From positions 211 through 64,210 of the forward strand of contig JBIOUX010000104.1 in the NCBI GenBank assembly GCA_044867425.1: a stretch of DNA of 64,000 bases, in the 5' to 3' direction. The position numbers were made by a program, and so were the translations under genes. Each line of letters starts with the position of its first letter. The first letter of the stretch is position 1. This DNA comes from Acidimicrobiia bacterium. Its GTDB lineage: Bacteria; Actinomycetota; Acidimicrobiia; IMCC26256; BP-133. This document shows, piece after piece, positions 449 to 34,010 of this stretch. The notes below the pieces were generated by a model. The model was not told the DNA's origin. It searched no databases and worked only from the letters and a program-made list of their open reading frames with translations.

Positions 449-468
449 ATGAGTGGCGAAACACTCAT
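449..468. promoter_or_regulatory. Palindrome copy 1: ATGAGTG-GCGAAA-CACTCAT (putative operator)
   Basis: Perfect 7-bp inverted arms with a 6-nt spacer, upstream of the ParB-like regulator gene. The same arms recur at 17048-17067 and 33991-34010. Confidence 0.5.
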
Positions 469-584
469 GCGCTTCCCCCTCGTTGTGCGCCAGACTCGAT
501 CGTCGAGAGCCAGCCACACACGGACGCGGTGACGACCCCGCGTCTCTTCGGCGCGATGAACCGCAAGGGGAGGCCGACTTCGAT

Positions 585-1544
585 GTGTCGACCGACGGAC
601 CTCTCATGACTCCCATGGCAGGGCAGCCAGAGCCCCAGGAAATCCACTCTGTAGCGATCGACACGCTCAGGGAGGCCTTCACTCCCCGGCTCGGCCCTGG
701 CGATGTCGATCACATTCGCGCTCTGGCAGAGTGTTACGGCGATCTCCCACCCGTCGTTGTCCACCGCTCCACCATGACGGTGATCGACGGCGTGCATCGC
801 ATCTCCGCAGCCCGGTCACTCGGCCATTCGACCATCAAGGTGCGCTTCTTCGACGGGTCCGAAGCCGATGCGTATGTCGAAGCGGTGCGGGCCAACATCG
901 CCCACGGCAAGCCACTGGCCCTCTCGGAGCGACGCGAGGCAGCCAGGAACGTCCTTCGGCTGCATCCCGAATGGTCCGACCGGAGAGTGGCGGAGACGTG
1001 CGGACTCTCGCACAAGACGGTTGGTGCGGTACGGAAGCGATCGGCTGGAGAACTTCCCCACTTGAGCGTGCGTGTCGGTCGTGACGCCAGGACCCGGCCC
1101 ACCGACCCGGCCGCCCTCCGGCTTCAGGTCGCCGAGATGGCGCGGGCGACACCGACCGCGTCGCTGCGACGGCTGGCGGACCAGGGCGGCACATCGCAGT
1201 CGACCGTGCTCGACGTCCGCCGGCGGATGGAGCGCGGCGAGAGTCCCGTGCCGCCGCGGCTCTCGGGACCTGACGTTCGTGCCACGTCTTCCAACCGGCG
1301 TCACCGTTCGGAGCCAACCGCCCTGATGGCGGACAGCGCCTGCACCGCCACCCCGGGCAGCAGGGCTTTCGCCGAATGGTTCGAAACCCATCGGATCTCG
1401 GAAAAAGAGGCCCTCCGGCACCTGGACGACGTGCCGCTCAGCCGGGTGTACCTCGTCGCCGATGAGGCCCGTGGGCAGGCCGCCTTATGGGAGCGCGTGG
1501 CCACCGGCTTGGAAGCACGGGCGGCTGCGGCAAAACGACGATGA
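585..1544 (+). CDS. ParB/Srx-type N-domain plus HTH regulator (StrR-like architecture)
   Basis: Track ORF 453..1544. ParB-like segment: VAIDTLREAFTPRL...PPVVVHRSTMTVIDGVHRISAARSLG. HTH-like segment: RRVAETCGLSHKTVGAVRKR. The GTG at 453 lies inside the palindrome, so the start was moved to GTG 585 (GGGGAGG upstream). ATG 606 is an alternative start. Confidence 0.7.
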   Translation: MSTDGPLMTPMAGQPEPQEIHSVAIDTLREAFTPRLGPGDVDHIRALAECYGDLPPVVVHRSTMTVIDGVHRISAARSLGHSTIKVRFFDGSEADAYVEAVRANIAHGKPLALSERREAARNVLRLHPEWSDRRVAETCGLSHKTVGAVRKRSAGELPHLSVRVGRDARTRPTDPAALRLQVAEMARATPTASLRRLADQGGTSQSTVLDVRRRMERGESPVPPRLSGPDVRATSSNRRHRSEPTALMADSACTATPGSRAFAEWFETHRISEKEALRHLDDVPLSRVYLVADEARGQAALWERVATGLEARAAAAKRR

Positions 1545-1611
1545 CATGGATGGAGCCGTGGCCTCATCCGCCATTGAACCACCAGGATTGACCGTCCCAC
1601 CGATCTGAACT

Positions 1612-1701
1612 ATGAGTAGATTGAGCCGCCGGGCGATGCCTGCAAAGAGTGGGTTCCCATCCTCGACGGCTTGTGGGATTTTCTCACCGCTAGTTCCGTA
1701 A
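1612..1701 (+). CDS. smORF-1, 29 aa: MSRLSRRAMPAKSGFPSSTACGIFSPLVP (speculative)
   Basis: My translation of the 385-bp gap. ATG..TAA. No Shine-Dalgarno. Third-position G+C is 17/29, lower than host genes. Ser/Thr/Cys-containing C-terminal half. Confidence 0.2.
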   Translation: MSRLSRRAMPAKSGFPSSTACGIFSPLVP

Positions 1702-1722
1702 ATACTTCCTGGAGGTATTTCC

Positions 1723-1821
1723 GTGCCCTACGACAAGATCGGCATCCGAGCGAAGGTTGTCCGCCGGAGCCGCAAGCAAGGACAGGACAGCAAGAGCAAA
1801 GAGAAAAAGCCGTCGAAGTAG
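1723..1821 (+). CDS. smORF-2, 32 aa basic peptide: MPYDKIGIRAKVVRRSRKQGQDSKSKEKKPSK (candidate precursor or leader peptide)
   Basis: GTG 1723 lies 7 nt after GGAGG (1711-1715). Third-position G+C is 25/31, which is host-like. TAG at 1819-1821. A GC-rich hairpin follows. Too short for the supplied track. Confidence 0.45.
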   Translation: MPYDKIGIRAKVVRRSRKQGQDSKSKEKKPSK

Positions 1822-1842
1822 CCGGCTGGAACACGATGTGAG

Positions 1843-1879
1843 CAGCGCCGCCGTCGGACAGCATCCGGCGGCTGCGCTG
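1843..1879 (+). terminator. GC-rich stem-loop after smORF-2 (attenuator or leaky terminator candidate)
   Basis: CAGCGCCGCCG (1843-1853) pairs with CGGCGG(CTG bulge)CGCTG (1866-1879), giving an 11-bp stem. There is no U-tract. Confidence 0.35.
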
Positions 1880-1929
1880 ACCACCCCAAAGGCACAGGCC
1901 ACTGAGGAGACTCTCGATCGGCGCCGAGG

Positions 1930-3129
1930 ATGAGACGGAACACCTGGGTCGAGCGGGAACTGGCAAACGGGGTGCGGCTCGCCATTGAAACCGATGGCGA
2001 CGGCTGTCCGAGTTATTGCGTTCGGTACGAGGTAGGGAGTAGCCACGAAGCTCCTCATGAGCACGGGCTCGCGCATCTGGTGGAACATCTTGCCTTCTGT
2101 ACTGGACGCGGGTCATTCGATGATCTCGCGGCTGAGGCCGGCGGCTTCTGCAACGCCGTGACCGACTTTGATTCCACGTCCTACTTCGGGACTGTTCCAT
2201 GTGGCGACCTGGCGGGGCTGCTCGTCCTGGAAGCGGCTCGCATGCGAGATCTCTTGGCCAGCCACGACGAATGGGCGCGGGAGGTCGAGGTGATCGCGGA
2301 CGAAGCCGAGATGTTGAGGAACGATCCCGAGCACCTCTGGATCGAGGATCTGGCCCGGATTCTGTTCGCCAAGAGTGATCCCTACCATCACGGAATTCTC
2401 GGACCGGTGGGCGAACTGCCCGACCTCGCCGAGGCACGTCATTTCCATCGCCGCCACTACACCCCCCTTCGGTGCGCGGTGGCCGTAGCCGGGGCGACCG
2501 AAGTGGAACCACTGCTCTGCTCGCTGGAAACGGGCTTGGGCCGTCTGCCCATGAGCGGCAGAGCAGCGGCGGTACGGCGGCCGACCTTGAGGAAAGCGCC
2601 GAGAACAGCTGACCTCGATGCGGTAGACGGAAGCGCTCGGGTCTATTTCGTTTGGCCCGCGCCGCCGTGGGGCACCCCGGGTTCCTGGGCCTTGACGATG
2701 TGGGGAAATCTTCTTGTCGTGGGCGCCGACGCCCACCTGGCCTCGGTCAGGGTCAGCGGCGCACCGCTCTCCGACTACGGATATCAGATCCTGCGCTGGC
2801 GGCGTGCGCCGCTCCTGATCGTCTGGGGTGAAGCTGACGATGAAGATGTGCTGCGGCTCGAGGATGCGCTCCACCGGGCGTTGCTCGAAGCCCCTTCACC
2901 CAGCGGCACTGACATCGAGCGCGCCCGGCATCTCGAAGCCATCGGCGGGGCTCGGGCCGTGGAGGACTCATGCGACCGGGCCGGCCTCAAGGCCGACGCC
3001 CTCGCCTACCAGTTGGCTGAGGGAGATGGTGTTCTTCTGATCGAGCGCGTCACCGATGAAATGGTCAGGGAGGCGGCGAGGGTCACCCGGGGACCCGTGT
3101 CCGCGGTTTTGCGGTACCACGGCCGGTGA
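1930..3129 (+). CDS. M16 family zinc peptidase, catalytic subunit
   Basis: Inverted zincin motif HxxEH in GLAHLVEHLAF. 399 aa. Confidence 0.85.
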   Translation: MRRNTWVERELANGVRLAIETDGDGCPSYCVRYEVGSSHEAPHEHGLAHLVEHLAFCTGRGSFDDLAAEAGGFCNAVTDFDSTSYFGTVPCGDLAGLLVLEAARMRDLLASHDEWAREVEVIADEAEMLRNDPEHLWIEDLARILFAKSDPYHHGILGPVGELPDLAEARHFHRRHYTPLRCAVAVAGATEVEPLLCSLETGLGRLPMSGRAAAVRRPTLRKAPRTADLDAVDGSARVYFVWPAPPWGTPGSWALTMWGNLLVVGADAHLASVRVSGAPLSDYGYQILRWRRAPLLIVWGEADDEDVLRLEDALHRALLEAPSPSGTDIERARHLEAIGGARAVEDSCDRAGLKADALAYQLAEGDGVLLIERVTDEMVREAARVTRGPVSAVLRYHGR

Positions 3130-4265
3130 CGCTTGGATTCCCCCTGGTGTCCACCCGGCACCATCGCCTCGGCGTGGTGTCGGGCCGCGCCCTGTACGAC
3201 GCCGGCGTCTGGCGGGAGGAGGTTCCCGGGGCCGCGCTGTTGCTGCTGTGCTGGCTTCGGGCCGCCTGCCGGGGCAGCCCGGCGCACGCTGCCACCGCCC
3301 CGCTGGCGGCGCTCGGCGTTCCCCACTTCTGGCACGCCAGCTGGGAGTTTCTCGAGTTGGAGTTCGAGTGCCTTGACGAGGACGTCCAGGCGGTCGTGGA
3401 ACGCTTACCGGTGGGAACGCGGTTCGGTTCCCAGTCTGATCCCACCTCGCTCCGGGACGCTGTCGACCGCGCCTTCAGGATGCACCACACCCAGATGAGA
3501 AGCGCCCTCGCCAGCGGGGCCAGCCACGCCGCGCAGGCCCTGGGCCGAGCATGCCTGGATCGCTACGGTCTCGTCGGAGCCGCGCCACCGGCCGGTGCCG
3601 ACGGCTCCGTGATCGTCGGGATGTGGGAACGCCTGGGGCCGCCCAAAGCCATCGTCCTGGCCGGCGACACGGATGTGGCCGAGGCACGGCCGGTTTGGCC
3701 TTCAGCCGCCGCACCGATTCCTCGCCCGCCCAGGCCTGTCGCCGCCCCCGTCTGCCGGGATGAGCGGGTATGCGTGACGGTGGCATTGGAGGCGGTCGAC
3801 TGGCCGATCGCGGCTACCACGGCCATGGTGCTCGAACGTGAGTTGGTGGGCCGGTTCCGCCAGCAGGACGGGCTTGCCTACGAGATCTCGTCGGAACCTC
3901 TCGGTCACTGCGTCCTCGGCCAGATGGTGGGGGGACGGAAACGGCGGGACGCTCTCGTCGTCCAGGCTCGTGCCGTCCTTCGTCATCTCCGCGAATTGTC
4001 ATCGCCGCTCTGGCAACAGGGCGCGCGCATGGCTTTGGCCCAAGCGCTCGCCGTCCGGCAGCGATCCGAAGTCGTTGTCGACCGGATGGTGGAGATCATG
4101 GCGTCCCAAAACTCGTTCCCCGGCCAGGAGATGGAGAGGGAGATCGACCGGTTGAGGTGGATGGCCGAGAACCCGGCGGATCTGTGGCGGCCCGCTCCTG
4201 CGCCTGGCGTTCTCGTCCTCACGCAGCCAGGCCGACCGGCGCAGCAGCACCTCGCCCGTGCTTGA
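3126..4265 (+). CDS. M16-like peptidase partner subunit (no HxxEH)
   Basis: GTGA overlap with the upstream M16 gene and a similar size. It lacks the zinc motif, which fits a non-catalytic partner of an M16B-type pair. The call rests on context and weak family resemblance. Confidence 0.6.
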   Translation: MTLGFPLVSTRHHRLGVVSGRALYDAGVWREEVPGAALLLLCWLRAACRGSPAHAATAPLAALGVPHFWHASWEFLELEFECLDEDVQAVVERLPVGTRFGSQSDPTSLRDAVDRAFRMHHTQMRSALASGASHAAQALGRACLDRYGLVGAAPPAGADGSVIVGMWERLGPPKAIVLAGDTDVAEARPVWPSAAAPIPRPPRPVAAPVCRDERVCVTVALEAVDWPIAATTAMVLERELVGRFRQQDGLAYEISSEPLGHCVLGQMVGGRKRRDALVVQARAVLRHLRELSSPLWQQGARMALAQALAVRQRSEVVVDRMVEIMASQNSFPGQEMEREIDRLRWMAENPADLWRPAPAPGVLVLTQPGRPAQQHLARA

Positions 4266-5523
4266 CGCCGGCCGGGCCCGCAGGTCTGGACCAGGCCTGT
4301 GGGCGGACCCCGACTTCCTCAAGTTCTGGACCGCCCAAACCGTGTCGAGAGTCGGCACCCAGGTCACGTTTCTCGCCCTGCCGCTCACTGCCGTCGTGCT
4401 CCTGGACGCGAGTCCTGCCCAGGTCGGTTGGCTGGCCACCGTGGAGTATCTCCCGTACTTCTTCAGCCTGTGGGCGGGTGTCATAGTGGATCGCCTGCGT
4501 CGGCGCCGTCTGGTGGTGGGCGCGGACATCGGCCTCAGTCTCGTCATGGGCGTCGTCCCCGTAGCGGCGGCTACCCACCACCTCACCTATCCGGCCTTGC
4601 TCGGGGTCGCCTTCGCGGTGGGGTGCCTCACCATGCTCATCGAGATCGCCCAGACGAGCTATCTCCCCACCGTGGTCCGTCGGGTGCACCTGCTCGAGGC
4701 GAACACCAAACTGGAGGTCGGCCGGGTCGCCGCCCAGGTGTCCGGATCGGGACTGGGCGGGCTGCTGATCCAGGCGCTGTCGGCGCCCATCGCCATCGCC
4801 GCCGACAGCGCGTCCTACCTGGTGGCCGGATGCCTCATGGCTCGGATTGCCAAGCCTGAGGCACCGCCACCACGGCAGAGGACCCGCGTCCTGGCGGAAG
4901 TGCAGGAAGGCCTGAGGATGGCCCTGGCCCTGCCGCTGCGGCCCCTGCTCTTCCTGGCCGCGCTGGACAACCTCGTCCTTTCGGCGCAGGGCGCGGTGTT
5001 CGTTCTCTACATGGCTCGGGATCTGAGTTTTCCGCCCGCGTGGATCGGCTTCGTCACGGCCGCGAGCAGTATCGGCGGCGCCCTTCTCGGTCTCGCTGGG
5101 CGGCGCTCCCGTCTCGGCCAGGACCTTCACCGTCGCGTGTCGGGCGCGCAGTCCATGCTCGTCGCCAGCATCGCGATCATGCCCATCGCCACGCTCGTCT
5201 CACCGGTGACTTCGCTCGCACTGATGATCGCCTCCGGTTTCCTCTACGGTGCCGCCACCGTCGTCCTCTTCGTCACCATCGTGACCGCACGACAAGCGCT
5301 GACTCCCGACGCGCTCCTCGGCCGGGTCAGTGCCGCGTGGCGCTTCCTGGCGGTGACGGCGACGCCCGCCGGTGCCTTTCTGGGCGGGACCCTGGGACAG
5401 GCACTGGGACTCCCGACGACGTTCTTCCTGTGCGCCACCGGCTTGTGCGTTCCCCTCGTCCTCATCGCCCGCGCTGAGAGCCGGGCCGGGCTTGCGCTAG
5501 CGGCGGGCCAGAAACACGGATGA
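4258..5523 (+). CDS. MFS transporter (EntS/MFS_3-like exporter)
   Basis: Multi-TM hydrophobic profile. N-terminus WADPDFLKFWTAQTVSRVGTQ and loop DRLRRRRL. Overlaps the upstream stop codon. Confidence 0.85.
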   Translation: MLDAGRARRSGPGLWADPDFLKFWTAQTVSRVGTQVTFLALPLTAVVLLDASPAQVGWLATVEYLPYFFSLWAGVIVDRLRRRRLVVGADIGLSLVMGVVPVAAATHHLTYPALLGVAFAVGCLTMLIEIAQTSYLPTVVRRVHLLEANTKLEVGRVAAQVSGSGLGGLLIQALSAPIAIAADSASYLVAGCLMARIAKPEAPPPRQRTRVLAEVQEGLRMALALPLRPLLFLAALDNLVLSAQGAVFVLYMARDLSFPPAWIGFVTAASSIGGALLGLAGRRSRLGQDLHRRVSGAQSMLVASIAIMPIATLVSPVTSLALMIASGFLYGAATVVLFVTIVTARQALTPDALLGRVSAAWRFLAVTATPAGAFLGGTLGQALGLPTTFFLCATGLCVPLVLIARAESRAGLALAAGQKHG

Positions 5524-6288
5524 CCGCTTGCTGGCCAGGAACGGGCCGTCGAAGTGGGGCAGTCGGGAGGCCAGCTCCGCGCCATCCATTCTCCTGGCCA
5601 GGTGGTCCCGCACCGCCGCCCAGTCGGCAAAGGTGACCTGTCCGTTGGCGTCGAGCCGGTCCACCTCCCGGAAATGGCGCTTCAGCCGGCGCCGGCCGTT
5701 CTCGCGGCTGAAGGCGATGATGATGGCGGGTGTCCCGAACAGCAGCTCCCACAGTTCACTGAGGTTGCGCTCACTGAGTGTCGCGGCGACAAGCAAGCCC
5801 CCGGGTCGCAGGACCCGAGCGGCCTCACGGATCCCGGCCGCGACGTTCTCGAGATAGTGCAACACCCAATTCGCAATAAGACAGTCGACGGTTCCTGAGG
5901 CGAAAGGCAACCGGTTGAGGTCGGCAATTACGGTCCCGAGACCCCGATCGGCTGCCATCTTTGCCATGCGCGGTGAGAGGTCCGCGGCCAGGACTTTTCC
6001 CTTGATTGCGGTTTGCAGCCGAGCGGCGAAGACCGCCGTACCGCAGCCGACGTCCACGATCGTGCCCGGATGAAACTGAGCGACTCTTTCGAACGCAAGC
6101 TCCAAGGCGTCAGTACCCGTTCCCGTGTCGTACAACGCCGACTGCGCCTCGTAGTCGCTCTCCTGTGCGAACGCCTCGAGCACACGTTGGCGATGGCTAA
6201 CAGTCTTCGCGGAATGATCACGGCGACGATCGCAACCTGATTGACCTATCACCGCACAACTATTAACGTCGCTTTCAGCGTACTTCAA
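5497..6288 (-). CDS. Class I SAM-dependent methyltransferase
   Basis: SAM motif I IVDVGCGTAVFAARL. Converges on the MFS gene with a 27-nt overlap. Start codon uncertain. Confidence 0.8.
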   Translation of the reverse strand: MKYAESDVNSCAVIGQSGCDRRRDHSAKTVSHRQRVLEAFAQESDYEAQSALYDTGTGTDALELAFERVAQFHPGTIVDVGCGTAVFAARLQTAIKGKVLAADLSPRMAKMAADRGLGTVIADLNRLPFASGTVDCLIANWVLHYLENVAAGIREAARVLRPGGLLVAATLSERNLSELWELLFGTPAIIIAFSRENGRRRLKRHFREVDRLDANGQVTFADWAAVRDHLARRMDGAELASRLPHFDGPFLASKRSSVFLARR

Positions 6289-6342
6289 GCCTGGCTGTCC
6301 AGAATTTCATCGCGCCGGGAGAGGCGCCGCGGAGGAGAGCCT

Positions 6343-7512
6343 ATGCCGGACAGCACGGAAGCTTTCGTCCCCTATGAGCATGAGCGTGTCGAGCGGGAAT
6401 CGACCAACTGGTGGGATCTGCTCCCCATCTCGATCAACGACACCTACGGCGACCCGTTCATCCCCGAACAGGTCGAGAATACGGTCATGAAGATCACCCG
6501 GCTCATGGACCATCGATTTCCCCTGGCAATCTTCACCAAGGCTGGGTATGACCGTGCCGTCCTACAAAAATTGCGGGCGATTGCTGCCAATGACCGTGTG
6601 GTGGTCTTCTACAGCCTCACCGGCTTGAACGAGGGCGGTATTTCTTTCGGAGAACGCTTGGCGATGATCGATGGGCTCCGTGACATCTGGGACAACGTCG
6701 TCGTCTTCACCCGTCCAATCATCCGGAACCGGAACGACGATCCTGCACTCCTTCAACGCCTCGTGGATGTTGCCGCCGCCGGAACCAAACTCCTCGTGAT
6801 GGGCGGCCTGCACGACCGCTACAAGAACAAGTTGTTGGAATTTGCTATCGAAGACCTGCTCACGGAAATGTGCGACCAACAAGGCGTGAAGTGCTTCCAC
6901 AAGACCGCCTGTTGCGCCGCTTATCTCCATCGCCGGTCCTGCTGGGTACACGACATGACTGGCCCTCACAACCTTGAGGTGGCGCGCCAGCTCGGCTATC
7001 GGTTCGCGATCATCGAGAATCGCGTGGTCCTGGACCGGGCCAGCACGGGTGACCTGAACTTCCTGCGCATGCTGGTACGGGCCGGCGTGTACGCCGCCCG
7101 TCTCATCAGCAACTACAACCTGCTTACGATCCCGAGCGGCGAGCAGAAATACGAAGCCACTTCGAGTTGGTACGCCTGGTCGGAGAACATCGATACCTGC
7201 CTCGATTGTGACTATTGCATCATCAAGCAGATTGAATATCTGAAGAGGATGCGGGTGAAGATCGGCACGCATCCGTCAGAAATGGTCGAGATCGTCCGCG
7301 CCCTGAATCCGGGAGTCGACTTTTCGACGTTCCAGATGACCAAGCTGCGCGAGGAACGGTCGGAGGCGCATACTTACGACGACGTCCGGGTGGTGAAACC
7401 GTGCTTCGTGAGGCGTTATCCACCCCCACCTCTTGCTGCCATCTCGGGGACGGCCCCGGACCGCGTGGTCGCGCCACTTCGGATCGCATGTACTCCGAGC
7501 TCCGCACGCTGA
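6343..7512 (+). CDS. Cys-rich protein with a radical-SAM/SplB-like barrel signature but no N-terminal CxxxCxxC; C-terminal CLDCDYC
   Basis: ATG 6343 follows GGAGGAG. ISINDTYGDPFIPEQ...LAIFTKAGYDRAVL...FTRPIIRNRNDDP resembles the post-cluster part of COG1533-type radical SAM barrels. Cys-rich tail: CDQQGVKCFHKTACCAAYLHRRSC and CLDCDYC. G+C is visibly lower than in neighbouring genes. Confidence 0.6.
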   Translation: MPDSTEAFVPYEHERVERESTNWWDLLPISINDTYGDPFIPEQVENTVMKITRLMDHRFPLAIFTKAGYDRAVLQKLRAIAANDRVVVFYSLTGLNEGGISFGERLAMIDGLRDIWDNVVVFTRPIIRNRNDDPALLQRLVDVAAAGTKLLVMGGLHDRYKNKLLEFAIEDLLTEMCDQQGVKCFHKTACCAAYLHRRSCWVHDMTGPHNLEVARQLGYRFAIIENRVVLDRASTGDLNFLRMLVRAGVYAARLISNYNLLTIPSGEQKYEATSSWYAWSENIDTCLDCDYCIIKQIEYLKRMRVKIGTHPSEMVEIVRALNPGVDFSTFQMTKLREERSEAHTYDDVRVVKPCFVRRYPPPPLAAISGTAPDRVVAPLRIACTPSSAR

Positions 7513-8231
7513 GCGCCGGCACGGCGTCCTTCTACTGCATGGTGGAACGGCCACGAAAGGGAGCGGCGGCTCCCGATGGGGTCTTCCTTCTGCACGGCCT
7601 GGGCGAGGACCGTAGCGGCCACAACTACCTGTGGTCGCAGATGGCCCGGCGTCTGGTGTCGGACGGTTCCACCGTCTACCGGTGCGACCTGGCCGGCATG
7701 GGGGACTCCCTACTGCCTCTCGACCTCGATCTCTGGGCCAGGCAGCTCGACGCCTTGGGAGGTCTTGGACAAGACCATGATCGCATCCACGTCGTGGCCC
7801 GGGGGGCGGCCCGCTGCATCGTGCCCGACAACTGGCGACGGGGGACTGTGGTGGCCCTGCGGCCGTGCGGCCCCCGGGATGTCGACACGGGGCTCGGAAG
7901 CGCACTGGGGCGGGCCGTCTGTGGCCAGGTGAGGCCCGTCCCGGGCGATGTCGGACCGGAGGAGAGCCGGTTCTGGACTGCGCTGGGAACCGAGGTGCGC
8001 GCCATCGGAGGCGCCAGTGTCAGTGCCTTTTTCCTCACTCAGGTCGCCTCCCGCACGACCCCGTGTCCTTCTTGCTGGACGGTCCTCGCCGCCGTTCACG
8101 ATGCCGATCGTGTCCCGGAGGAGGCCATCCTGCTCGACACCCCGAGCTCGCTGTTCCTGCTCGAGGCGGACCGCGGACAGGTCCTGGAGCTGGTCACCCG
8201 AGCGCTGGCCGGGACTGGTCACCGGCGTTGA
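7488..8231 (+). CDS. Alpha/beta-hydrolase-fold protein with a degenerate nucleophile elbow
   Basis: Track ORF 7401..8231. GVFLLHGLGEDRSGH and CDLAGMGDS are alpha/beta-fold-like. The elbow reads VVARGAA instead of GxSxG. Start is uncertain (ATG 7488 or 7539). Confidence 0.5.
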   Translation: MYSELRTLSAGTASFYCMVERPRKGAAAPDGVFLLHGLGEDRSGHNYLWSQMARRLVSDGSTVYRCDLAGMGDSLLPLDLDLWARQLDALGGLGQDHDRIHVVARGAARCIVPDNWRRGTVVALRPCGPRDVDTGLGSALGRAVCGQVRPVPGDVGPEESRFWTALGTEVRAIGGASVSAFFLTQVASRTTPCPSCWTVLAAVHDADRVPEEAILLDTPSSLFLLEADRGQVLELVTRALAGTGHRR

Positions 8232-8866
8232 GTTCGAGGGCGCTGTTCGTCGCCGTGGAAGGCATCGACGGCTCAGGGAAGTCGACGATGGCCGCGGCCC
8301 TCGCCCGGACCCTGGAGACCCGAGGGCGCGCCGTCAGCGTGCTCCGTCCGCTGGCCCCCGAGGGGCGTGTGGTCGACGATGTGCGCTTCGTCCACCAGGC
8401 CCTGGGCGGTCGGAACTCGGAATTGGACCGTCTCAAGGACCGATTCCTCTCCACCTACTTCAGCTATCGACTGGCATTGTCGGCCGTGCGGGAGATCGTT
8501 CCCCGGCTGGAGGCCGGGGTCTCGGTCGTTGCCGACCGGTATCTCGGATCCCATGTGGTGAACCAGGCGGTGTTCGGCGAAGACCTCCAACCCGTCCGGG
8601 GCCTGCTGGAACGCCTCCCTCCTCCGGACGTGACCTTGTTCCTCCAGGTCCCGGTTCCCGTCGCCCTGGAGCGGCTGCAACCTCGACCTCGGCGGGGCGT
8701 GGGCGATCATCGCCGCTTCCTTGAAGCCGCCGACGCCGGCTTCCAGGACCAGGCCATCCTTCATGGTTGGGTCGTGCTGGACGGGACGCGAGCCCCCGAA
8801 GTGGTCGCCGTCGACGCCGCCGACCAGATGGAACGCGCCTTGGGAGCCGCGGAGATGCGGCGGTGA
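8228..8866 (+). CDS. Thymidylate kinase-like P-loop kinase
   Basis: FVAVEGIDGSGKST P-loop and ADRYLGSHVVNQ (DRY..S..YQ-like). A TTG start forms a TTGA overlap with the upstream stop. In frame with track ORF 7865..8866. Confidence 0.7.
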   Translation: MSSRALFVAVEGIDGSGKSTMAAALARTLETRGRAVSVLRPLAPEGRVVDDVRFVHQALGGRNSELDRLKDRFLSTYFSYRLALSAVREIVPRLEAGVSVVADRYLGSHVVNQAVFGEDLQPVRGLLERLPPPDVTLFLQVPVPVALERLQPRPRRGVGDHRRFLEAADAGFQDQAILHGWVVLDGTRAPEVVAVDAADQMERALGAAEMRR

Positions 8867-14764: not shown

Positions 14765-15378
14765 CGAGACAACCTGGCCTCGAGGTCTACGAGGAGCACG
14801 GGGACTACCCGCCACTCGTGCGCGCCGCCGTCCGGTTGACGCGAGACCGCGGCTGCTCACAGGCCTGCCTCCCCGAGGTCGGCCGTCTGCTGCAGCTCAT
14901 GGCCGCCACCGTGACGACCGGGAACATCGCCGAGCTCGGCACCGCCTTCGGGGTGGGCACCGCCTGGTTGGCGAGCGGAATGAGCCCGAGCGTCCGGCTG
15001 GTCACGGTCGAGATCGAACCCGACCGGGCTGAGGCCGCGGCGGGGCTCTTCGCGCCGCTCGAGAACGTCGAGGTCCTCTGCGGTGACTGGACCCAGAGCC
15101 ACAAGGCGGCGCCGTACGCGCTGGTCTTCTCCGACGGCGGGCCGAAGAGGGAACCGGACGCCCCCGACCTGGTCGCACCTCTCCTCCAGCCGGGAGGCCT
15201 TGTCGTACTCGACGACTTCACCCCAGAGAGCGCCTGGACGGACGAGGAGCGTCAGCAGTGGTACCAGGACCCGACGCGGCTCATCTGGTCGGAGCATCCC
15301 GGCTATCTGTGCACCGAGGTGCAGCTCAGCCCCCGGTCCTCGGTACTGCTGGCCGTCCGCCGGCCCCGGTCGGGGTGA
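14761..15378 (+). CDS. Class I SAM-dependent O-methyltransferase (family 3-like)
   Basis: IAELGTAFGVGTAWLA is SAM motif I and GGLVVLDDF follows. GTGA overlap at 14761. Confidence 0.75.
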   Translation: MTRQPGLEVYEEHGDYPPLVRAAVRLTRDRGCSQACLPEVGRLLQLMAATVTTGNIAELGTAFGVGTAWLASGMSPSVRLVTVEIEPDRAEAAAGLFAPLENVEVLCGDWTQSHKAAPYALVFSDGGPKREPDAPDLVAPLLQPGGLVVLDDFTPESAWTDEERQQWYQDPTRLIWSEHPGYLCTEVQLSPRSSVLLAVRRPRSG

Positions 15379-17067: not shown

Positions 17068-17101
17068 TTCGTGTCACGGGCCGGCTTACGTGGTGGTTCC
17101 C

Positions 17102-23747: not shown

Positions 23748-26700
23748 GTGATCCGTCGAGGAGGAGCGCTCCTCACCGGAGCGCTTCTCCTCTCGCCGGT
23801 GCTGCCCGCGGCGCCGGTGCCCAACCCCGGGCCGACGGCGGCGGCCGCTCCGGCCCCGGCCGCGTTCCCCCCGTCGGGCGGACGGACCGGCCACGACGTC
23901 TCGGGGCACGAGAACGCCGAAGGCCTCAAGCTGGTGGCCGCCACCGGTGAATCGGTGGTGGCCGGATCGGCCTGTGCCCGGACGGCACCCGTGCGCGGCT
24001 ACGACGTGGCCGCCGTCGCCGTCGACATCACCCTCAACCGCTTCGGCGACCACGACCCGGCCGGGCGGATGTACGTGCTCGAGTCGGCGCTGGCGGCGGT
24101 GCGGGACGAGGAGCGGGCCAACGCCGCTGCCCGGGGCGACGCCAGGGGCGGCGAACCGGCGGTCAGCGCCGGCCTCCAGGGGGACGCCATCCAGCCCCTC
24201 ACGCTGCGCACCCGTCCCGGTGAGTGCCTGCGCATCCGCCTCCGCAACGGCCTGGCCGAGGAACCGGTGTCCCTCCACGTCCACGGCAGCGCCCTGCGGG
24301 TGGCGGGCGGCGCCCCGGCGGTGGACGGCAACCCGGCGGCCATGGCGGGGCCGGGCGCCTCGGTGACCTACGAGTGGCAGGTCCCGGCCGACGAAGCCGA
24401 GGCCACGCACTACTTCCACTCCTCGGGGCCGGCCGAGCGGTCCCTGGCCGCCCACGGGCTGTTCGGGGCCGTGGTGGTGGAGCCTCCCGGGGCCCTCTGG
24501 CTCGACCCCCGGGATCCGGCCCGCCCGGCCAGCGGCTGGGACGCCATCGTGGTGGACCCCGGCGGCCCCACCTTCCGGGAGTACGCCCTCTACTACCACG
24601 AGGTCGGCGACGAGACCTACCAGGTGCAGGACCGCACCGGCGCCTTCGTGCCCCTCGTCGACCCCGTCACCCACGCCTACCGTCCCGACGGGCGGGCGCT
24701 CAACTACCGCAGCGAGCCCTTCCTCAACCGGCTCCAGCTCGGACTGGCCGTGACCGGGCGGGCCGACGAGTCCCTGGAGTACAGCTCCTACGCCTTCGGC
24801 GACCCGCCCACCCCGATCCTGCGGGCCTACCTGGGCGATCCCGTCAAGCAGCGGGTCGTCCACGCCGGCCCGGAGGTGTTCCACGTCCACCACGTCCACG
24901 GCGGCAGCGTGCGGTGGCGGCGCCAGCCCGGGGTCGAGCCTTCCGGGGACACCCCGAACCCCGGGCCCAGTGCCCTCGACTCCGGCCTCGACAAGGCGCC
25001 GCCGCTCGTCCCGGCCCACTCGGAGCGGACCGACTCCCAGACCATCGGGCCCTCCGAGACCTTCGACATCACCGACGAGTGCGGCGCCGGCGGCTGCCAG
25101 GCCAGCGTGGGGGACTTCCTGTATCACTGCCATGTGGCCCACCACTACTTCGCCGGCATGTGGGGGCTGTGGCGGGTCTACAACACCCTCCAGGGCGGCG
25201 CCGCCGCCACCGACACCATGCCCGCCCTGGCCGAGCTGCCCGACCGGGCGGGGCGGACCCGGGCGGCGGTGACGTCGGCGGAGCTGGTGCCACCGGCGGG
25301 TACCGACCTGGCTGCCCTGGTCGAGACCCAGCTGCCGCCTCCCGGGCCCCGGTCCCCCACCGACGCCGCCACCTTCGACTGGGTCCGCGACGGCGCCGTG
25401 TACCGCAACGAGCCCGAGACGGCCGCCGTGTGGCCCAACTACCGCTCGCCCGCGCCGGGCGTGCGGCCGCCCCTTCTCTTCGAACCGGTGACGGGCCGCC
25501 TCGCCTACCCCTTCCTCCGACCCCACCTGGCCACCCGGCCGCCGTTCGCCCCCGGCCACGGCCCCGCCCCCTACCTCGACCCCGTCCGCTCGGGCCACGA
25601 CCCACCCCCGCCCGGAGCCAACGGCGACGGATCCCTGTGCCCGTCGGGCACCACGCCGGTGCCCCTGCCTGTCAACGCCATCAGCCAGCCGGTGCCGCTC
25701 AACACCGCCGGCAACATCGTCGATCGCGACGGGCAGCTCTTCGTCCGGCGCGAGCAGGAGGAGGCCGCCCGGACCGACCCGGCCCTGCAGGTGCCCCTGG
25801 TGGTGCGGGCCCGGGCCGGCCAGGACTGCGTCGACGTGCTGTTGCGCAGCGAGCTGTCCGACACCGGCGACGTCCCCTACTCCAAGGTGGGCCTGCACGT
25901 GCACTTCGTGCAGTTCGACGTGCAGGGCAGCGACGGGGTCGACACCGGGTTCAACTACGAACAGACGGTGCGGCCTTTCCGGGCCGAGGGGACCGAGCTG
26001 GTGGCGGCCGCGCCCGCCGGCGCCACCCGCCTGCGGGTGGCCGACGCCGGGCGCTACCGGCCCGGGGTCCTGGTCGGCGTCGGCCTCGACCGGGACCGCG
26101 AGTTCGAGACCGCCGAGGTGGCGGGCACGGACGGCGACGCCATGGTCTTCACCGCGCCGCTGCGCTTCCCCCACCAGCCGGGCGAGGTGGTGGGCACCGA
26201 GTTCGTCCGCTACCGGTGGTTCCCCGACGCCCAGTTCGGCACCTCGTACTTCCACGACCACGTGAACGCCCTGTCGACGTGGCGCCACGGGCTCTTCGGC
26301 GCCCTGGTGGCCGAGCCCCCGGACTCCACGTGGACCGACCCCCACACCGGCGAGCCCCTGGCCAGCGGGGCCATCGCCGACGTCCACGCCAAAGGCCCGG
26401 TGGGCGTGGACGTGGCGGGCAGCTTCCGGGAGCTGGTGCTCCTCACCCAGGACGACCAGCCCCTCACCCACGTCGGGCGGGCCACGGGTTCGTCCTACAA
26501 CCTGCGGGCCGAGCCCCTCGCCGCCCGGGACGGGCCGCCGGCGCGGCGCTTCTCCAGCACCGACCACGGGGACCCCGCCACCCCGCTCCTGGAGGCCAAC
26601 CTCGGCGACCCCCTGGTGGTGCGCAGCCTGGTGGGGGCGGCCAACGAGATCCACACCACCCACATCGAGGGCCACTGGTTCCGGACCGAGCCGTGGAGCG

Positions 26701-28013
26701 AGACGTCGCCGCCGGTGTCGACCGTGCGGGTGGGGATCTCGGAGCGCTTCGACCTCGTCGTCCCCGCCGCCGGCGGGCCCCAGCGGATGCCCGGCGACTA
26801 CCTCTACGCCAACGGCCGACCCTCCAAGCTGGCCGAGGGCAGCTGGGGGCTCGTGCGCGTCTACGGGCCGGGCGAAGGGGGGCTCCGGCCGCTGCCCGGC
26901 CACGAGCGGGTTCCGTCCCCGGCGCCGGCGGTCTGCCCGGCGGGAGCGCCGGAGCGGCGCTTCGACGTGGCCGTCGTCGACGCCCCCCTCCCCATGCTCG
27001 AGCGCGGCACCGGGAAGCTGTACGTCCTCGAGCGCGACCTCGCCGCCGTGCGGTCGGGGGACCGGGCCCCCGAGCCCCTCGTCCTCCACATCTCGGTGGG
27101 CGACTGCCTGGTGGTGAAGCTCCGCAACGCCACCGCCGACGGGGCGGTGAGCTACACCTGCGACCTGCTCGCCTCCGATCCCGCCGCCAACGGCGGCCCG
27201 GGGGCGGGGCGCATGCCCGACCAGGCGACCCCCCCGGGTGCCAGTCGCACCTATCGCTTCTACGCCAGCCCCGAGGTGGGCGAGACGGTGGCCGTCACCC
27301 GGGACTGGGGCGACGTCCTGCGCAACCCGGCCCTCGGCCTCTACGGCGCCGTGGTGGTCGGGCCCCGGGGCGCCCGCTACCGCGACCCCGTGACCGGCGA
27401 GGACCTGTCGGCGGCGGCGTCGTGGCGGGCCGACGTGGTGCCCCCCGAGGGGCCCCCGTGGCGGGACTTCACGCTGCTGTTCCACGACTCCGACGACAGC
27501 ATCGGCACCCACCGGATGCCCTACACCAACCACGTCCGGGGCACGACGGGCGTGAACTACCGGCTGGCTCCCGACATCCCAGTGCTCGATGCCGAGGCCG
27601 GGGACCCCGTGCGCCTCCACCTGGTGGCGCCCTTCAGCGAGCAGGCCCAGGTCTTCAGCCTCGACGGCCACCGCTGGCCCGCCGAGCCCGGCCTTCCGGG
27701 CACGCCGCTGCGGTCGTCGCAGGCCATCGCCGGAGGCGAGGCCCTGACGCTGCGGCTCGACGGCGGTGCGGGCGGTCCCGAGCGGCTGGCCGGCACCTAC
27801 CGGTGGGAGGACCATCGCCTGCCCTACGCCGAGGCGGGCCTGTGGGGTCAGCTGCGCGTGCGCCCCGCCGGCGGGGAAGCGGGCCTGCCCGGGCTGCGGC
27901 CGCTGGCGGCGACCCGCTCCCGGCCGCCGGCGGCCATGGCTGTCGCCCTCGCCGTCCTCGTCGCCGCCATCCTCGCCGGGCTCCGGATGGTGATCACCCG
28001 CCGGCGGGCCTGA
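23748..28013 (+). CDS. Giant multicopper-oxidase-like protein (1421 aa) with RR signal and C-terminal TM anchor
   Basis: MCO motifs LHVHGS, FHVHHVHGG, YHCHVAHHYFAGMWGLW, LHVHFVQF and YFHDHV. N-terminus MIRRGGALLTGALLL. C-terminus AVALAVLVAAILAGL. Starts 4 nt after the cupredoxin stop. Confidence 0.8.
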   Translation: MIRRGGALLTGALLLSPVLPAAPVPNPGPTAAAAPAPAAFPPSGGRTGHDVSGHENAEGLKLVAATGESVVAGSACARTAPVRGYDVAAVAVDITLNRFGDHDPAGRMYVLESALAAVRDEERANAAARGDARGGEPAVSAGLQGDAIQPLTLRTRPGECLRIRLRNGLAEEPVSLHVHGSALRVAGGAPAVDGNPAAMAGPGASVTYEWQVPADEAEATHYFHSSGPAERSLAAHGLFGAVVVEPPGALWLDPRDPARPASGWDAIVVDPGGPTFREYALYYHEVGDETYQVQDRTGAFVPLVDPVTHAYRPDGRALNYRSEPFLNRLQLGLAVTGRADESLEYSSYAFGDPPTPILRAYLGDPVKQRVVHAGPEVFHVHHVHGGSVRWRRQPGVEPSGDTPNPGPSALDSGLDKAPPLVPAHSERTDSQTIGPSETFDITDECGAGGCQASVGDFLYHCHVAHHYFAGMWGLWRVYNTLQGGAAATDTMPALAELPDRAGRTRAAVTSAELVPPAGTDLAALVETQLPPPGPRSPTDAATFDWVRDGAVYRNEPETAAVWPNYRSPAPGVRPPLLFEPVTGRLAYPFLRPHLATRPPFAPGHGPAPYLDPVRSGHDPPPPGANGDGSLCPSGTTPVPLPVNAISQPVPLNTAGNIVDRDGQLFVRREQEEAARTDPALQVPLVVRARAGQDCVDVLLRSELSDTGDVPYSKVGLHVHFVQFDVQGSDGVDTGFNYEQTVRPFRAEGTELVAAAPAGATRLRVADAGRYRPGVLVGVGLDRDREFETAEVAGTDGDAMVFTAPLRFPHQPGEVVGTEFVRYRWFPDAQFGTSYFHDHVNALSTWRHGLFGALVAEPPDSTWTDPHTGEPLASGAIADVHAKGPVGVDVAGSFRELVLLTQDDQPLTHVGRATGSSYNLRAEPLAARDGPPARRFSSTDHGDPATPLLEANLGDPLVVRSLVGAANEIHTTHIEGHWFRTEPWSETSPPVSTVRVGISERFDLVVPAAGGPQRMPGDYLYANGRPSKLAEGSWGLVRVYGPGEGGLRPLPGHERVPSPAPAVCPAGAPERRFDVAVVDAPLPMLERGTGKLYVLERDLAAVRSGDRAPEPLVLHISVGDCLVVKLRNATADGAVSYTCDLLASDPAANGGPGAGRMPDQATPPGASRTYRFYASPEVGETVAVTRDWGDVLRNPALGLYGAVVVGPRGARYRDPVTGEDLSAAASWRADVVPPEGPPWRDFTLLFHDSDDSIGTHRMPYTNHVRGTTGVNYRLAPDIPVLDAEAGDPVRLHLVAPFSEQAQVFSLDGHRWPAEPGLPGTPLRSSQAIAGGEALTLRLDGGAGGPERLAGTYRWEDHRLPYAEAGLWGQLRVRPAGGEAGLPGLRPLAATRSRPPAAMAVALAVLVAAILAGLRMVITRRRA

Positions 28014-31318: not shown

Positions 31319-31328
31319 GTCTCACGCG

Positions 31329-32021
31329 TCAGAAGTCGACGTAAGAGTCGAACGGCCGCCTGTCGGGCACCGACCCGGTGCGGAGGACGGCCCACTGGTG
31401 CAGCGCGTCCGGTGCCGACACCTCCTCGAGCGCCCAGCCGAGGTTCTTCACGAAGAACGACGCGGCCCGCCCGACGGCGGGCAGCTGGTAGTCGTCGAGG
31501 AACACGATCCCTCCGGCACGCAGCAGGCGACCGAGGTAGACGAGATCGAGGAAGACGCCGTCGAAGCGGTGGTTGCCGTCGACGTACGCCAGGTCGAAGC
31601 TCCGACCTTCGATGACGAACCTCGGCAGTGCGAGCTGCGACTCCTCGGCGTGGTACTCGACCAGCTCAGTGAGTCCGGCCTCCTCGAGGAACTGCAGACC
31701 GCAGTTGGCAAACCTCGTTGCCTGATGCGGGTCCACGACGACGTGGCGCGCCGCGGGATCGCCGTTGGTAAGCAGACCTTCGCACATGAACAGCGCGGAG
31801 ATGCCATAGCCCAGACCGATCTCGATCGTCTGGACGGCGTCTTCTCGCGTCACCCAGTCCCCCACCGTCTCTCCCTCGGCGGCGCCCACGGCGACCGGGA
31901 ACAGGGTGTGGGTGCTCCCGTCAGAACGCGCCACGGCCGAACCGTCTCGGACCAGCCGCTCGATCACCTGGCGTACCCGTCGGGGCGTTGGCCGTCGACC
32001 GGGAGCGTGGGGGGCCTCCAA
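31329..32021 (-). CDS. Class I SAM-dependent methyltransferase
   Basis: IEIGLGYGISALFM is motif I-like, and GGIVFLDDY follows. Confidence 0.7.
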   Translation of the reverse strand: MEAPHAPGRRPTPRRVRQVIERLVRDGSAVARSDGSTHTLFPVAVGAAEGETVGDWVTREDAVQTIEIGLGYGISALFMCEGLLTNGDPAARHVVVDPHQATRFANCGLQFLEEAGLTELVEYHAEESQLALPRFVIEGRSFDLAYVDGNHRFDGVFLDLVYLGRLLRAGGIVFLDDYQLPAVGRAASFFVKNLGWALEEVSAPDALHQWAVLRTGSVPDRRPFDSYVDF

Positions 32022-32024
32022 TGC

Positions 32025-33935
32025 TCAGTGTCTCGAGTTGAGGGGCGCGATGGTCCGGCTGAGCAGGTCGGGCTGGCCGGGATCGCGCCGGAGGTGCGGA
32101 TACCGCTCGCCGCCGTGGTAATCGAGGGCGTGGTTGCGCAGGGTGCCCTCATCGTTGACGAGGAGCTGAATCGGCCCCGGGCGGGTCTTCGCCCCGCTCA
32201 GGGAGTCATGCAGCGCGTCGAGCGAGAACGCCTTGCCGTCGACGGAGACGACGGTGGCGCCGGGCCCGAGTCCGGCGTCCGCCGCCGGCGTCCCGGGAAT
32301 GACGTCGGTGACGACACCGTCGGTGCCCAGCCGCAGACCGAGGGAGTAGCCCATCTCGATCTGCTCGCGGGCCGACTGCAGGTCAGCGAGGCGCTGTCCC
32401 GGCTCGTCGTCGTAGGCGAGCCGCCAGCCGGATCGTTCGATCCCGCCGAGGGGGGCGTGGAAGTCGGTCGACCAGAGGCGCTGGTCGAAGAACGTGCGCC
32501 AGTCGTAGGACACAACCTCGTCGAGGGTCGACACGACGTCCTCAAAGGTATACGTCTCGAGCGACGGCGGGCCCGTCTGCCCTCCATGGAAGCGGCGGCA
32601 GAAGTCGTCGAGGGCACGTTCTCCGGACGTGAGCTGACGGATGAGCGTGTCCACTTCGAGCCAGATGAGCCAGCCCTCGTTGTAGAAATCGGTTCCCCGC
32701 CGCTCGGCGCTCCACTCCGGCGGGGCCCGGTAGAGGATCTGGGCGGCGACGGCCGTGTCGATCAACGGACGCCAGCCGCGACCGGGGATGTGGTCGAGCC
32801 TGGCCGCGGCTGAGGCCAGGGCATCGGCATACTGCTCTTGCGTCCACAGCCCGCTGCGGGCCGCCAGCACGTTGCCGTAGTACTGCGTCAGCCCCTCGTA
32901 GACCCACAGCAGCTCGCCCTGCATCGGAGACTGGAAGTCGGACGTGGCCAGCCCGGCGGGGCGGCGGTACTTGCCGTTCCAGGAGTGGACGTACTCGTGC
33001 GGCAGCAGACCGAGGGCCAGGCGCCCCTGCGTCTCGTCCACCAGCGCCCGCTCCGCCACACGGTTGTCGCTCGACTGGTGGTGTTCGAGCCCCCCGGGCG
33101 CCACCCCGTCGCTCAGCGTCAGGAGGAAGGTGTAGTGCTCGAAGTGCTCGGCGTCGAAGAGCGCCCTGGCCTCGTCGACGAGGTTGCGCATGTCCTCGGC
33201 GAAAGCGGGACTCGCTTCCAGGGCGGCGGGGCTGTCGGCGGCCATGGCGATCCTCACCGCCGGCTTCGCCGTCGAGAGCGGGACGGACCGGAAGTACTCC
33301 CCGGCCAGCACCGGTGAATCCACCAGGGTCGTCAAGCTGGCCGGTTGGAAGTCCACCTCGCCCTCCGACTCCCGCTCCACCGCCAGCCCCGTACCGAATT
33401 TCCAGCCCGGCGGCAGCCGCAGGGAGGCGTCGAACACGAGGTCGTCGGTGTGTCCCACCGCCGGGTAGAGGAGTACCCGGTTCCAGACCAGGAGGGCCAG
33501 GTGCGACGTCGTCGACGCGCCGGCGGCGAACGGACCCTCCGAGGTCGGGGCCAGGAACTCGAGGTCCACCTCCACCGCGGTCGCCCCCGGCGGCACGTCC
33601 AGGTGGAAGGCGTACATGTCGATGGGATCACGCCGCCACCGGAGCGTTTCCCCGCCGGCCCGGAACTTCAGTCCCGCCAAGTTGACGATCGGCCCCGTCG
33701 GGCCGTGCTCACCGGGAATCCACTTCGGGTAGTAGAGCGTGAGGGGGCCGGGACCGGCCGGTATCACCTCGTGGGCGCGGACGAGCCGGCGCGGCGCCTC
33801 GGTGGCGTCGACCGTGAGCGTGACCGTCGCCGCCGCGTGGGCGACGCCCGTCCGGCTGAGTCCTCCGGCGCCGGGTCCCGGCAGCGAGACGAGGATCCAG
33901 AGCGCGGACAACAGCAGGGCAGCTCTTCGCTTCAT
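32025..33935 (-). CDS. Secreted M61 glycyl-aminopeptidase-like metalloprotease with PDZ domain
   Basis: HEYVHSW (HExxH). PDZ-like GLRLGTDGVVTDVIPGTPAADAGLGPGATVVSVDG. The start was trimmed to MKRRAALLLSALWIL (ATG 33935, GGAGG upstream). Confidence 0.85.
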   Translation of the reverse strand: MKRRAALLLSALWILVSLPGPGAGGLSRTGVAHAAATVTLTVDATEAPRRLVRAHEVIPAGPGPLTLYYPKWIPGEHGPTGPIVNLAGLKFRAGGETLRWRRDPIDMYAFHLDVPPGATAVEVDLEFLAPTSEGPFAAGASTTSHLALLVWNRVLLYPAVGHTDDLVFDASLRLPPGWKFGTGLAVERESEGEVDFQPASLTTLVDSPVLAGEYFRSVPLSTAKPAVRIAMAADSPAALEASPAFAEDMRNLVDEARALFDAEHFEHYTFLLTLSDGVAPGGLEHHQSSDNRVAERALVDETQGRLALGLLPHEYVHSWNGKYRRPAGLATSDFQSPMQGELLWVYEGLTQYYGNVLAARSGLWTQEQYADALASAAARLDHIPGRGWRPLIDTAVAAQILYRAPPEWSAERRGTDFYNEGWLIWLEVDTLIRQLTSGERALDDFCRRFHGGQTGPPSLETYTFEDVVSTLDEVVSYDWRTFFDQRLWSTDFHAPLGGIERSGWRLAYDDEPGQRLADLQSAREQIEMGYSLGLRLGTDGVVTDVIPGTPAADAGLGPGATVVSVDGKAFSLDALHDSLSGAKTRPGPIQLLVNDEGTLRNHALDYHGGERYPHLRRDPGQPDLLSRTIAPLNSRH

Positions 33936-33990
33936 GGCACCTCCGGGTCCCGCCTTTGACCCGAGGGTCGCGCCTCGTTGACCGCCGGTC

Positions 33991-34010
33991 ATGAGTGGTC
34001 CGGCACTCAT
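33991..34010. promoter_or_regulatory. Palindrome copy 3: ATGAGTG-GTCCGG-CACTCAT
   Basis: Sits in the 94-bp divergent region between the M61 peptidase (minus) and the nucleoside hydrolase pseudogene (plus). The flanks GTC...TTT match copy 2. Confidence 0.5.

Follow-up and report, generated by a model that had tools for sequence, protein, structure and literature searches.

Introduction

The class II sites of CRP/FNR are centred at position -41.5 of their promoters, and the lux box of LuxR is a 20-bp palindrome centred at -42.5. ParB, Noc, and KorB bind contiguous palindromes of 13-16 bp (13 bp in the KorB operator), and the HspR-associated inverted repeat (HAIR), CTTGAGT-N7-ACTCAAG, is the repressor site of a MerR-type protein. 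Transcription control in the Acidimicrobiia, which are abundant and mostly uncultured actinobacteria of soil and water, is a subject on which almost nothing is known. Here we describe a palindrome, ATGAGTG-N6-CACTCAT, that occurs three times in a 64,000-nt stretch of contig JBIOUX010000104.1 from a bacterium of an uncultured Acidimicrobiia lineage; this whole stretch is called the window below. We propose, with a probability of about 0.7, that the palindrome is the operator of a dimeric regulator, that it is built into the promoter itself, and that it defines a small clade-specific regulon. Among the described systems, the StrR site has the consensus GTTCGActG-N11-CagTcGAAc, and regulators of the StrR type sit inside biosynthetic clusters (PMC8306873).

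The element shares several features with the class II sites of CRP/FNR and LuxR, namely conserved arms around a free centre in a palindrome of 20-24 bp, an overlap of a few bp with the -35 element, a strict register to the -10 element, and AT-rich outer flanks (AAA...TTT). Unlike those sites, its half-site AAATGAGTGG and its spacing fit no described consensus of either type (TGAGT-N8-ACTCA here versus TGTGA-N6-TCACA in the CRP/FNR type), its centre lies 1-2 bp further upstream, and activation is here a prediction; no gene of the CRP/FNR or LuxR type was found in the window. HAIR is likewise an actinobacterial palindrome with a TGAGT...ACTCA core, but the spacing differs (N8, not N7), as do the flanks, and no chaperone genes lie downstream. 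The class I operators of KorB on plasmid RK2 and the StrR sites are also palindromes near promoters, and a gene for a helix-turn-helix (HTH) protein with a ParB fold lies directly behind one of our sites; in contrast to these systems, the layout here is 10-N4-10, and the local protein carries DGVHR in place of the GERR of ParB. In Kitasatospora sp. MAA19 (locus L173), as in TetR operators, the genes of a TetR protein and an MFS pump are flanked by the same 14 arm bases (ATGAGTGGCTGACCACTCAT) together with two degenerate copies, but there the positions relative to the promoter vary and the downstream register described below is absent. This likeness is probably convergence. The conserved operator-promoter module is real, and it is a fairly ordinary kind of regulatory element.

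Three Copies of One Palindrome

The initial annotation had listed three copies with identical arms and differing spacers, and the exact coordinates and spacers were reproduced: 449-468 (site 1, GCGAAA), 17048-17067 (site 2, GTCGAC, a perfect 20-mer palindrome), and 33991-34010 (site 3, GTCCGG). There are no others in the window, where dinucleotide-preserving shuffles give an expectation of 0.00 copies, and allowing 2 or 3 mismatches added no degenerate copies. All six ATGAGTG heptamers of the window lie inside these three palindromes. When GC-trivial cases are left aside, this is the only recurrent palindrome with 7-mer arms in the window, whose GC content is ~70%. Copies 2 and 3 do share the flanks GTC (5') and TTT (3') that had been noticed earlier, and copy 1 fits when it is read on the opposite strand (C...TTT flanks), so that all three conform to CATGAGTG-N6-CACTCATTT. 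That all three are intergenic was borne out by our gene calls, which combined gene calling based on GC content at third codon positions (GC3) with Pfam/NCBIfam scans.

Alignment of the 140-bp flanks in both orientations revealed no homology between the copies past ~24 bp. The palindromes are therefore not miniature inverted-repeat transposable elements (MITEs), transposon ends, or parts of a longer repeat, and these origins were ruled out. The frequent, randomly placed element of the MITE or repetitive extragenic palindromic (REP) kind against which the initial annotation had cautioned is not what the window holds: with three copies in 64 kb, every one at a putative promoter, there is no longer common body.

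A Fixed Register with Promoter-like Elements

The palindrome is directional, reading AAATGAGTG-N6-CACTCAT-GAC toward the regulated gene. When the sites are oriented as AAATGAGTG...CACTCATGAC, a gene start lies 33-116 nt downstream every time, and all the sites are intergenic. The key regularity is found between the two: in 9 of 9 independent sites, comprising the window copies and sites on related Acidimicrobiia or high-GC contigs, a hexamer NANNNT starts 21 or 22 nt past the palindrome. Any other offset between 0 and 69 has a count of 0 or 1. With a background of 0.04 per site, the probability of this register is ~3e-13, or ~2e-11 after correction for the offsets tried, and nothing of the kind appears on the mirror side of the palindrome in the same nine sites. 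The hexamers are CAGACT, CACACT, GACCCT, CAGGCT, GAGGAT, GAGACT, TACCGT, CAGAGT, and CACCAT; eight of them lack the initial T and carry C or G in its place.

The conservation of the palindrome itself was assessed over 12 distinct sites. Of the 14 arm positions, 13 never vary and the outermost one is A in 10 sites and T in 2, and the spacer is variable; 10 of the 12 sites match all 14 arm bases. GAC follows the palindrome directly on its 3' side in 11 of the 12. On the 5' side the two positions of an AA flank are A in 11 and 10 of the sites, in DNA of ~70% GC, and this distal flank is retained though no promoter constraint acts at that side.

Because NANNNT sits in a fixed register downstream, the last AT of the palindrome together with GACN can be read as a putative -35-like element, (A/T)TGACN, separated by 17-18 nt from the -10-like NANNNT. 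Given this predicted -10 element, the palindrome would span about -53 to -34 and would be centred at -43.5 or -44.5; this lies within the range of about -41 to -45 that characterizes class II activator sites overlapping the -35 element, if the predicted transcription start site (TSS) is correct. The candidate protein site is probably a 24-mer, AAATGAGTGG-N4-CCACTCATTT, and the asymmetry of the flanks in the initial annotation would arise because the -35 element overwrites the proximal flank of this 24-mer.

Two start codons coincide with the predicted +1 and lend it support: the GTG at one of the two L150 sites (L150b), and the ATG of a HAD hydrolase gene in L191, which encodes the canonical MRGLEALVFDLDG. 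These two mRNAs would be leaderless, if the predicted +1 holds. Leaderless mRNAs are common in actinobacteria. The remaining sites have leaders of at least 14 nt containing a Shine-Dalgarno sequence. A scan for the sigma-70 consensus with E. coli-like thresholds detected 0 of the 3 window promoters; they become visible only by register analysis across sites.

Occurrence and Conservation in Related Genomes

A 17-base pattern was searched against 596 Gb of species-representative genomes, a collection that does not include the genome of the window, and gave 53 matches, against ~70 expected (an estimate that assumes uniform base composition). Because this is about the chance level, the motif is not widespread, and only the high-GC matches among the 53 were taken as meaningful. 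Two of them lie in one Acidimicrobiia metagenome-assembled genome (L150 and L169) and have the same flanks as the window sites; one even has the spacer of site 2, GTCGAC. A degenerate 26-mer scan of metagenome contigs gave nine loci, two of which, the high-GC contigs L183 and L186, were relevant, and a rescan allowing mismatches added a second site in L150 and a second, back-to-back site in L186. All of these sites, on Acidimicrobiia or other high-GC contigs (L150 and L186 with two each, L169 and L183), carry the same flanks. In L186 (1368-1414) the two operator copies lie 27 bp apart, centre to centre, and together form a 47-bp palindrome; each copy has its own GAC and -10-like hexamer, and they face divergently, one toward an aminotransferase gene and the other toward a 19-codon open reading frame (ORF). 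In viral contigs the 14-base core has at least 120 matches, which we read as chance, and the 18-base gene-directed pattern has one match, on a contig of 40% GC, which was also taken as chance. A literature search with the motif sequence strings returned nothing relevant.

Comparison of orthologous promoters is informative for the M61 peptidase gene that lies next to site 3. Its orthologues at 85% (L191, L192, L193) and 88% identity (L194) are preceded by ATGAGTG CCCGAC CACTCAT GACC, 17 nt, and GAyyCT in the same orientation, and the site is kept despite a differing upstream neighbour (an MDMPI-domain gene, an ABM gene, or a hydrolase fragment). L189 is near-identical to the window. At 73-75% identity (L195, L196), stretches of 8-15 kb around the orthologues lack the site, and none was found upstream of a 71%-identical orthologue of the DUF402 gene behind site 2. 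Conservation at orthologous promoters, raised in the initial annotation as a means of checking the element, thus exists for the M61 gene at 85-88% identity and is lost at 73-75%, as it is for DUF402 at 71%. Since the element is kept at the closer distance and absent at the greater ones, it is, on these comparisons, under constraint and restricted to a narrow clade.

The Three Predicted Window Promoters and Their Assigned Targets

Site 1, with its AA flank (447-468, + strand), points to the gene of a ParB-N/HTH protein (protein B, 585-1544, + strand). The putative -35-like element ATGCGC (467-472, + strand) takes in the final 2 nt of the palindrome and is the weakest in the set; the predicted -10-like element CAGACT (491-496, + strand) follows after an 18-nt spacer, with a predicted TSS at ~503. 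On the other side of this intergenic gap lies a minus-strand gene for a membrane-protein-like product (ATG at 292). The ParB-N/HTH gene opens a + strand gene series with short gaps or overlaps that runs to ~15378, broken by a single methyltransferase ORF on the other strand (5497-6288). Its products include two M16-like peptidases, an MFS transporter, a radical-SAM-like protein, a Tmk-like protein, a Cmk-glycosyltransferase fusion, a hydrolase, a GT-TPR protein, a nucleotidyltransferase, and a methyltransferase. We assign the ParB-like/HTH gene and this long + strand operon to site 1 as its predicted targets.

Site 2 with its distal AA (17048-17069, - strand; AA at 17068-17069) points to a DUF402 gene. 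The putative -35-like element is ATGACG (17044-17049, - strand), the -10-like element CACACT (17021-17026, - strand) lies beyond a 17-nt spacer, and the TSS is predicted at ~17014. The palindrome is 67 nt upstream of the DUF402 ATG (16980) and 35 nt downstream of the gene of another luciferase-like monooxygenase (LLM). The DUF402 gene (16438-16980) and an LLM gene (15326-16441) form an operon (15326-16980, - strand), to which site 2 is assigned as the putative promoter element. Sites 1 and 2 thus bracket one cluster of ~16.5 kb, both pointing inwards, and this explains their spacing.

Site 3 with its distal AA (33991-34012, - strand; AA at 34011-34012) points to the gene of an M61 glycyl aminopeptidase with a PDZ domain (32025-33935, - strand). 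Its putative -35-like element ATGACC (33987-33992, - strand) and -10-like element GACCCT (33964-33969, - strand) are separated by 17 nt, and the predicted TSS at ~33957 would leave a 22-nt leader with GGAGG. The gap lies between the M61 ATG (33935, - strand) and the ATG (34036, + strand) of a 173-aa nucleoside-hydrolase fragment. The initial annotation had placed the palindrome correctly in this divergent gap, but the nucleoside hydrolase does not hold as a target: because site 3 is oriented away from it, the M61 gene is the assigned target on present sequence evidence, and the hydrolase is truncated.

A common nucleotide theme among the adjacent genes, suggested at the outset, was not recovered, as the genes targeted in the window and its relatives are of mixed kinds. 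The relatives contribute a HAD hydrolase, NHL-repeat proteins, a TPR protein, an aminotransferase, an unknown protein followed by a LAL-type regulator, and an EspR-like regulator with an HExxH protein.

Several observations were made beside these promoters. The stretch 310-375 is unusually AT-rich for a 70% GC window, and a sigma-70-like promoter, TTGACG (359-354)-17-TAAAGT (336-331), serves the minus-strand gene at 292 independently of the palindrome. The region 585-16980, with sites 1 and 2 at its ends, is a biosynthetic-looking cluster that also holds the LLM and DUF402 proteins. In a 64%-identical syntenic relative, a 41-aa ORF lies between the ParB-like regulator and the first peptidase; the corresponding lower-GC gap of the window (1545-1929) has small ORFs, e.g., 1612-1701, that could encode a precursor peptide. 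The nucleoside hydrolase (34030-34842, + strand) has 173 aa versus 309 aa in L191; the rest can be aligned in frame only across a stop codon, at 55% identity, and the 173-aa form also occurs in L189. This gene is probably a decaying pseudogene. In L183, the EspR-like gene downstream of the site (805-1236, - strand) is split by a frameshift, with the HTH part in another frame, and an HExxH (ImmA-like) gene comes next; the frameshift is probably a metagenome assembly error.

A Proposed Operator Built into the Promoter

The initial annotation had suggested the operator of a dimeric transcription factor at promoter positions, and the invariant arms with a free spacer in 12 sites, the fixed register, and the conservation at the M61 gene all point to the same interpretation. 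From the sites, their orientation, their register, and their conservation, we infer that a protein binds the operator. In the mechanism that we propose, a homodimeric HTH regulator would bind each palindrome, which is set in a sigma-70-type promoter at one register; read toward the gene, the unit would be AA-ATGAGTG-N6-CACTCAT-GAC(N), 17-18 nt, and NANNNT. A protein bound at about -53 to -34 would sit against region 4 of the sigma factor, which is the geometry of class II activators, and weak -10 elements, eight of the nine being without the first T, would fit activator-dependent promoters. In the window the regulon would have three units: the ParB-like/HTH gene with its operon, the convergent DUF402-LLM operon, and the secreted M61 peptidase. 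The regulon is probably small and confined to a subclade of uncultured Acidimicrobiia.

Several points weigh against this reading. The -35 and -10 elements were assigned by sequence alone, and the promoter consensus of the Acidimicrobiia is not established. The near-perfect conservation, with 10 of 12 sites matching at 14 of 14 bases, is unusual, as most regulons hold degenerate sites. Being paralogous duplicates of ~50 bp, the copies at M61 and HAD do not count as independent evidence. A site that overlaps the -35 element fits a repressor equally well. Finally, none of the candidate regulator genes examined in the window and at related loci could be connected with the motif.

If the interpretation is correct, the module yields a concrete 24-bp operator and a short list of co-regulated genes, including a biosynthetic-looking cluster driven from both ends, together with a promoter model for the clade: (A/T)TGACN, 17-18 nt, and NANNNT, with leaderless starts. 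With it one could also test cleanly the idea that HTH proteins of the ParB fold, where they are encoded in gene clusters, regulate from close to the promoter. Should the regulator prove to be an ordinary family member, the result is routine regulon annotation.

Activator or Repressor

The alternative that survives best keeps the operator-promoter unit and replaces the activator by a repressor that would occlude the -35 element. The site overlaps the -35 hexamer by 2 nt; in the Kitasatospora locus L173, three copies of this palindrome type flank the TetR-MFS pair and one of them overlaps a TTGACG-17-TTGAAT promoter; and a similar site lies upstream of a TetR gene in L157. On the contrary, the register fixed in all nine sites, the kept TGAC core, and the weak -10 elements form an activator-type pattern, whereas the position of repressor operators is usually variable, L173 being an example. 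The window has no TetR gene, and the TetR protein of L191 has a different operator. Because the register is strict, TGAC is well kept, and the -10 elements are weak, activation is probably the more likely mode on the sequence evidence, and repression the less likely one.

TetR proteins were also considered, and rejected, as binders in this clade. No TetR gene was found in the window; the TetR gene that lies between the two sites in L191 has its own operator, CTATCAnCGATAG (CTATCA/CGATAG); and the sites of L173 and L157 lack the register. The three TetR proteins compared are unrelated beyond the family level. A TetR operator set is present only in the unrelated L173, not in the window. In L173 (3413-4101), ATGAGTGGCTGACCACTCAT and its two copies with 2 mismatches form a textbook TetR operator set, and the TTGACG-17-TTGAAT promoter ends at the TetR ATG, so that this mRNA would be leaderless.

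The ParB-like Protein and Other Candidate Regulators

According to a second, doubtful proposal, which names the binder, the ParB-N/HTH protein (585-1544) binds AAATGAGTGGTCGACCACTCATTT, autoregulates through site 1, and controls sites 2 and 3 from a KorB-like position beside the -35 element. Site 1 points to its gene, and sites 1 and 2 bracket the cluster that this gene opens. Its AlphaFold model (predicted local distance difference test score, pLDDT, 88) matched Noc, ParB, and KorB over the N-terminal and HTH domains in Foldseek searches (E 1e-6 to 1e-4), and the family profile matched ParB at E 1e-4 and SbnI and sulfiredoxin (Srx) weakly. As judged from the model, the protein has a genuine ParB/Noc/KorB fold, and it is a member of the regulon. 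In addition, cluster-situated activators of the ParB/Spo0J type, such as StrR, bind palindromes (PMC8306873). However, the position of the gene behind site 1 proves only that it is a target. Neither of the two loci of 50%-identical ParB-like homologues that were read (L187 and L188) contains the motif, even with 3 mismatches allowed, or any recurrent palindrome, and no ParB-like gene is in view at the sites in L150, L169, L183, L186, L191, and L194, the contigs being short. Moreover, the known sites of ParB, Noc, and KorB are contiguous and those of StrR are 9-N11-9, neither of which equals 10-N4-10. The motif is also not parS-like, being 7-N6-7 (10-N4-10 with its flanks) and having a local protein without GERR, and it differs from the StrR operator in both sequence and spacing.

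The ParB-like family is large in actinobacteria and is often annotated as ParB/Spo0J; both L187 and L188 adjoin genes for nonribosomal peptide synthetases or polyketide synthases. The family has an invariant D-G-x-H-R (DGVHR in the window protein) where ParB has GERR. It may be, and this we consider slightly less likely still, that a chromosomal ParB/Srx-fold HTH protein, in which an Srx-like DGxHR nucleotide pocket replaces the CTP-binding GERR, works through a split palindrome of 24 bp located at -43.5 of sigma-70-type promoters. If true, a ParB-fold protein would switch on its own cluster from both ends along with unlinked genes such as that of the secreted M61 peptidase, and the ParB fold would then serve transcription in the manner of KorB outside plasmids, through an operator of new architecture.

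The other regulators of the window (two ArsR-type, one receiver-only, and two AfsR/SARP-like proteins) could not be linked to the motif, and the window has no homologues of the EspR-like, LAL-type, and 174-aa proteins encoded near the related sites.

Duplicated Promoters and RNA Hairpins as Unlikely Readings

It is improbable that the copies are a mobile promoter cassette spread by duplication and recombination, with their identity reflecting recent descent. In L191 the promoters of M61 and HAD are almost the same over ~50 bp, and site 3 of the window resembles a composite of them that lacks the intervening ~3.4 kb. Outside this pair, however, only the palindrome, the GAC, and the A and T of the -10-like hexamer are common to the sites; the 17-nt spacers and the flanks are unrelated, and the spacers within the palindromes differ as well. 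The least probable reading, that the palindromes are RNA hairpins (intrinsic terminators or elements of the 5' untranslated region), draws on their predicted folding at -12 to -15 kcal/mol and on the location of site 2, 35 nt past the stop codon of the upstream monooxygenase gene, and we dismiss it, as any palindrome folds trivially, the three sites have no U-tract, no terminator call, and no match to an Rfam covariance model, sites 1 and 3 have divergent genes on either side, the stems show no covariation but stay constant while the loops are free (12 sites), and the palindrome would lie outside the regulated transcript because the predicted TSS is downstream of it.

In L191, two direct ~50-bp operator-promoter copies, one before the HAD gene and one before the M61 gene (6491-10001), flank a segment of ~3.4 kb with the HAD gene, a 148-aa gene, an MDMPI gene, a TetR gene, and another MDMPI gene. 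This segment is missing in the window, where the site 3 promoter (33935-34036) combines the HAD-type spacer ggcggtcaacg with the leader of M61. To judge from this junction, the window arrangement looks like the product of a deletion by recombination between two promoter copies.

Other Features of the Window

A c-di-GMP-I-GGC riboswitch aptamer (54024-54098, - strand; Rfam RF03167, 67.8 bits, E 7e-14) lies directly upstream of a PAS-GGDEF-EAL gene (51266-54016, - strand), forming a cyclic di-GMP (c-di-GMP)-sensing leader on a c-di-GMP turnover enzyme. The two AfsR/SARP-like regulators (Trans_reg_C, BTAD, and AAA/TPR domains), at 45902-48772 (- strand) and 54286-57480 (+ strand), are encoded less than 10 kb apart, near this riboswitch-controlled gene and that of a type II/IV secretion ATPase (62205-63854). 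A 1404-aa ORF with a GC3 of 0.96 (23799-28013, + strand) matches multicopper oxidases in its N-terminal part only and is preceded by the gene of a cupredoxin-domain protein (22706-23743).

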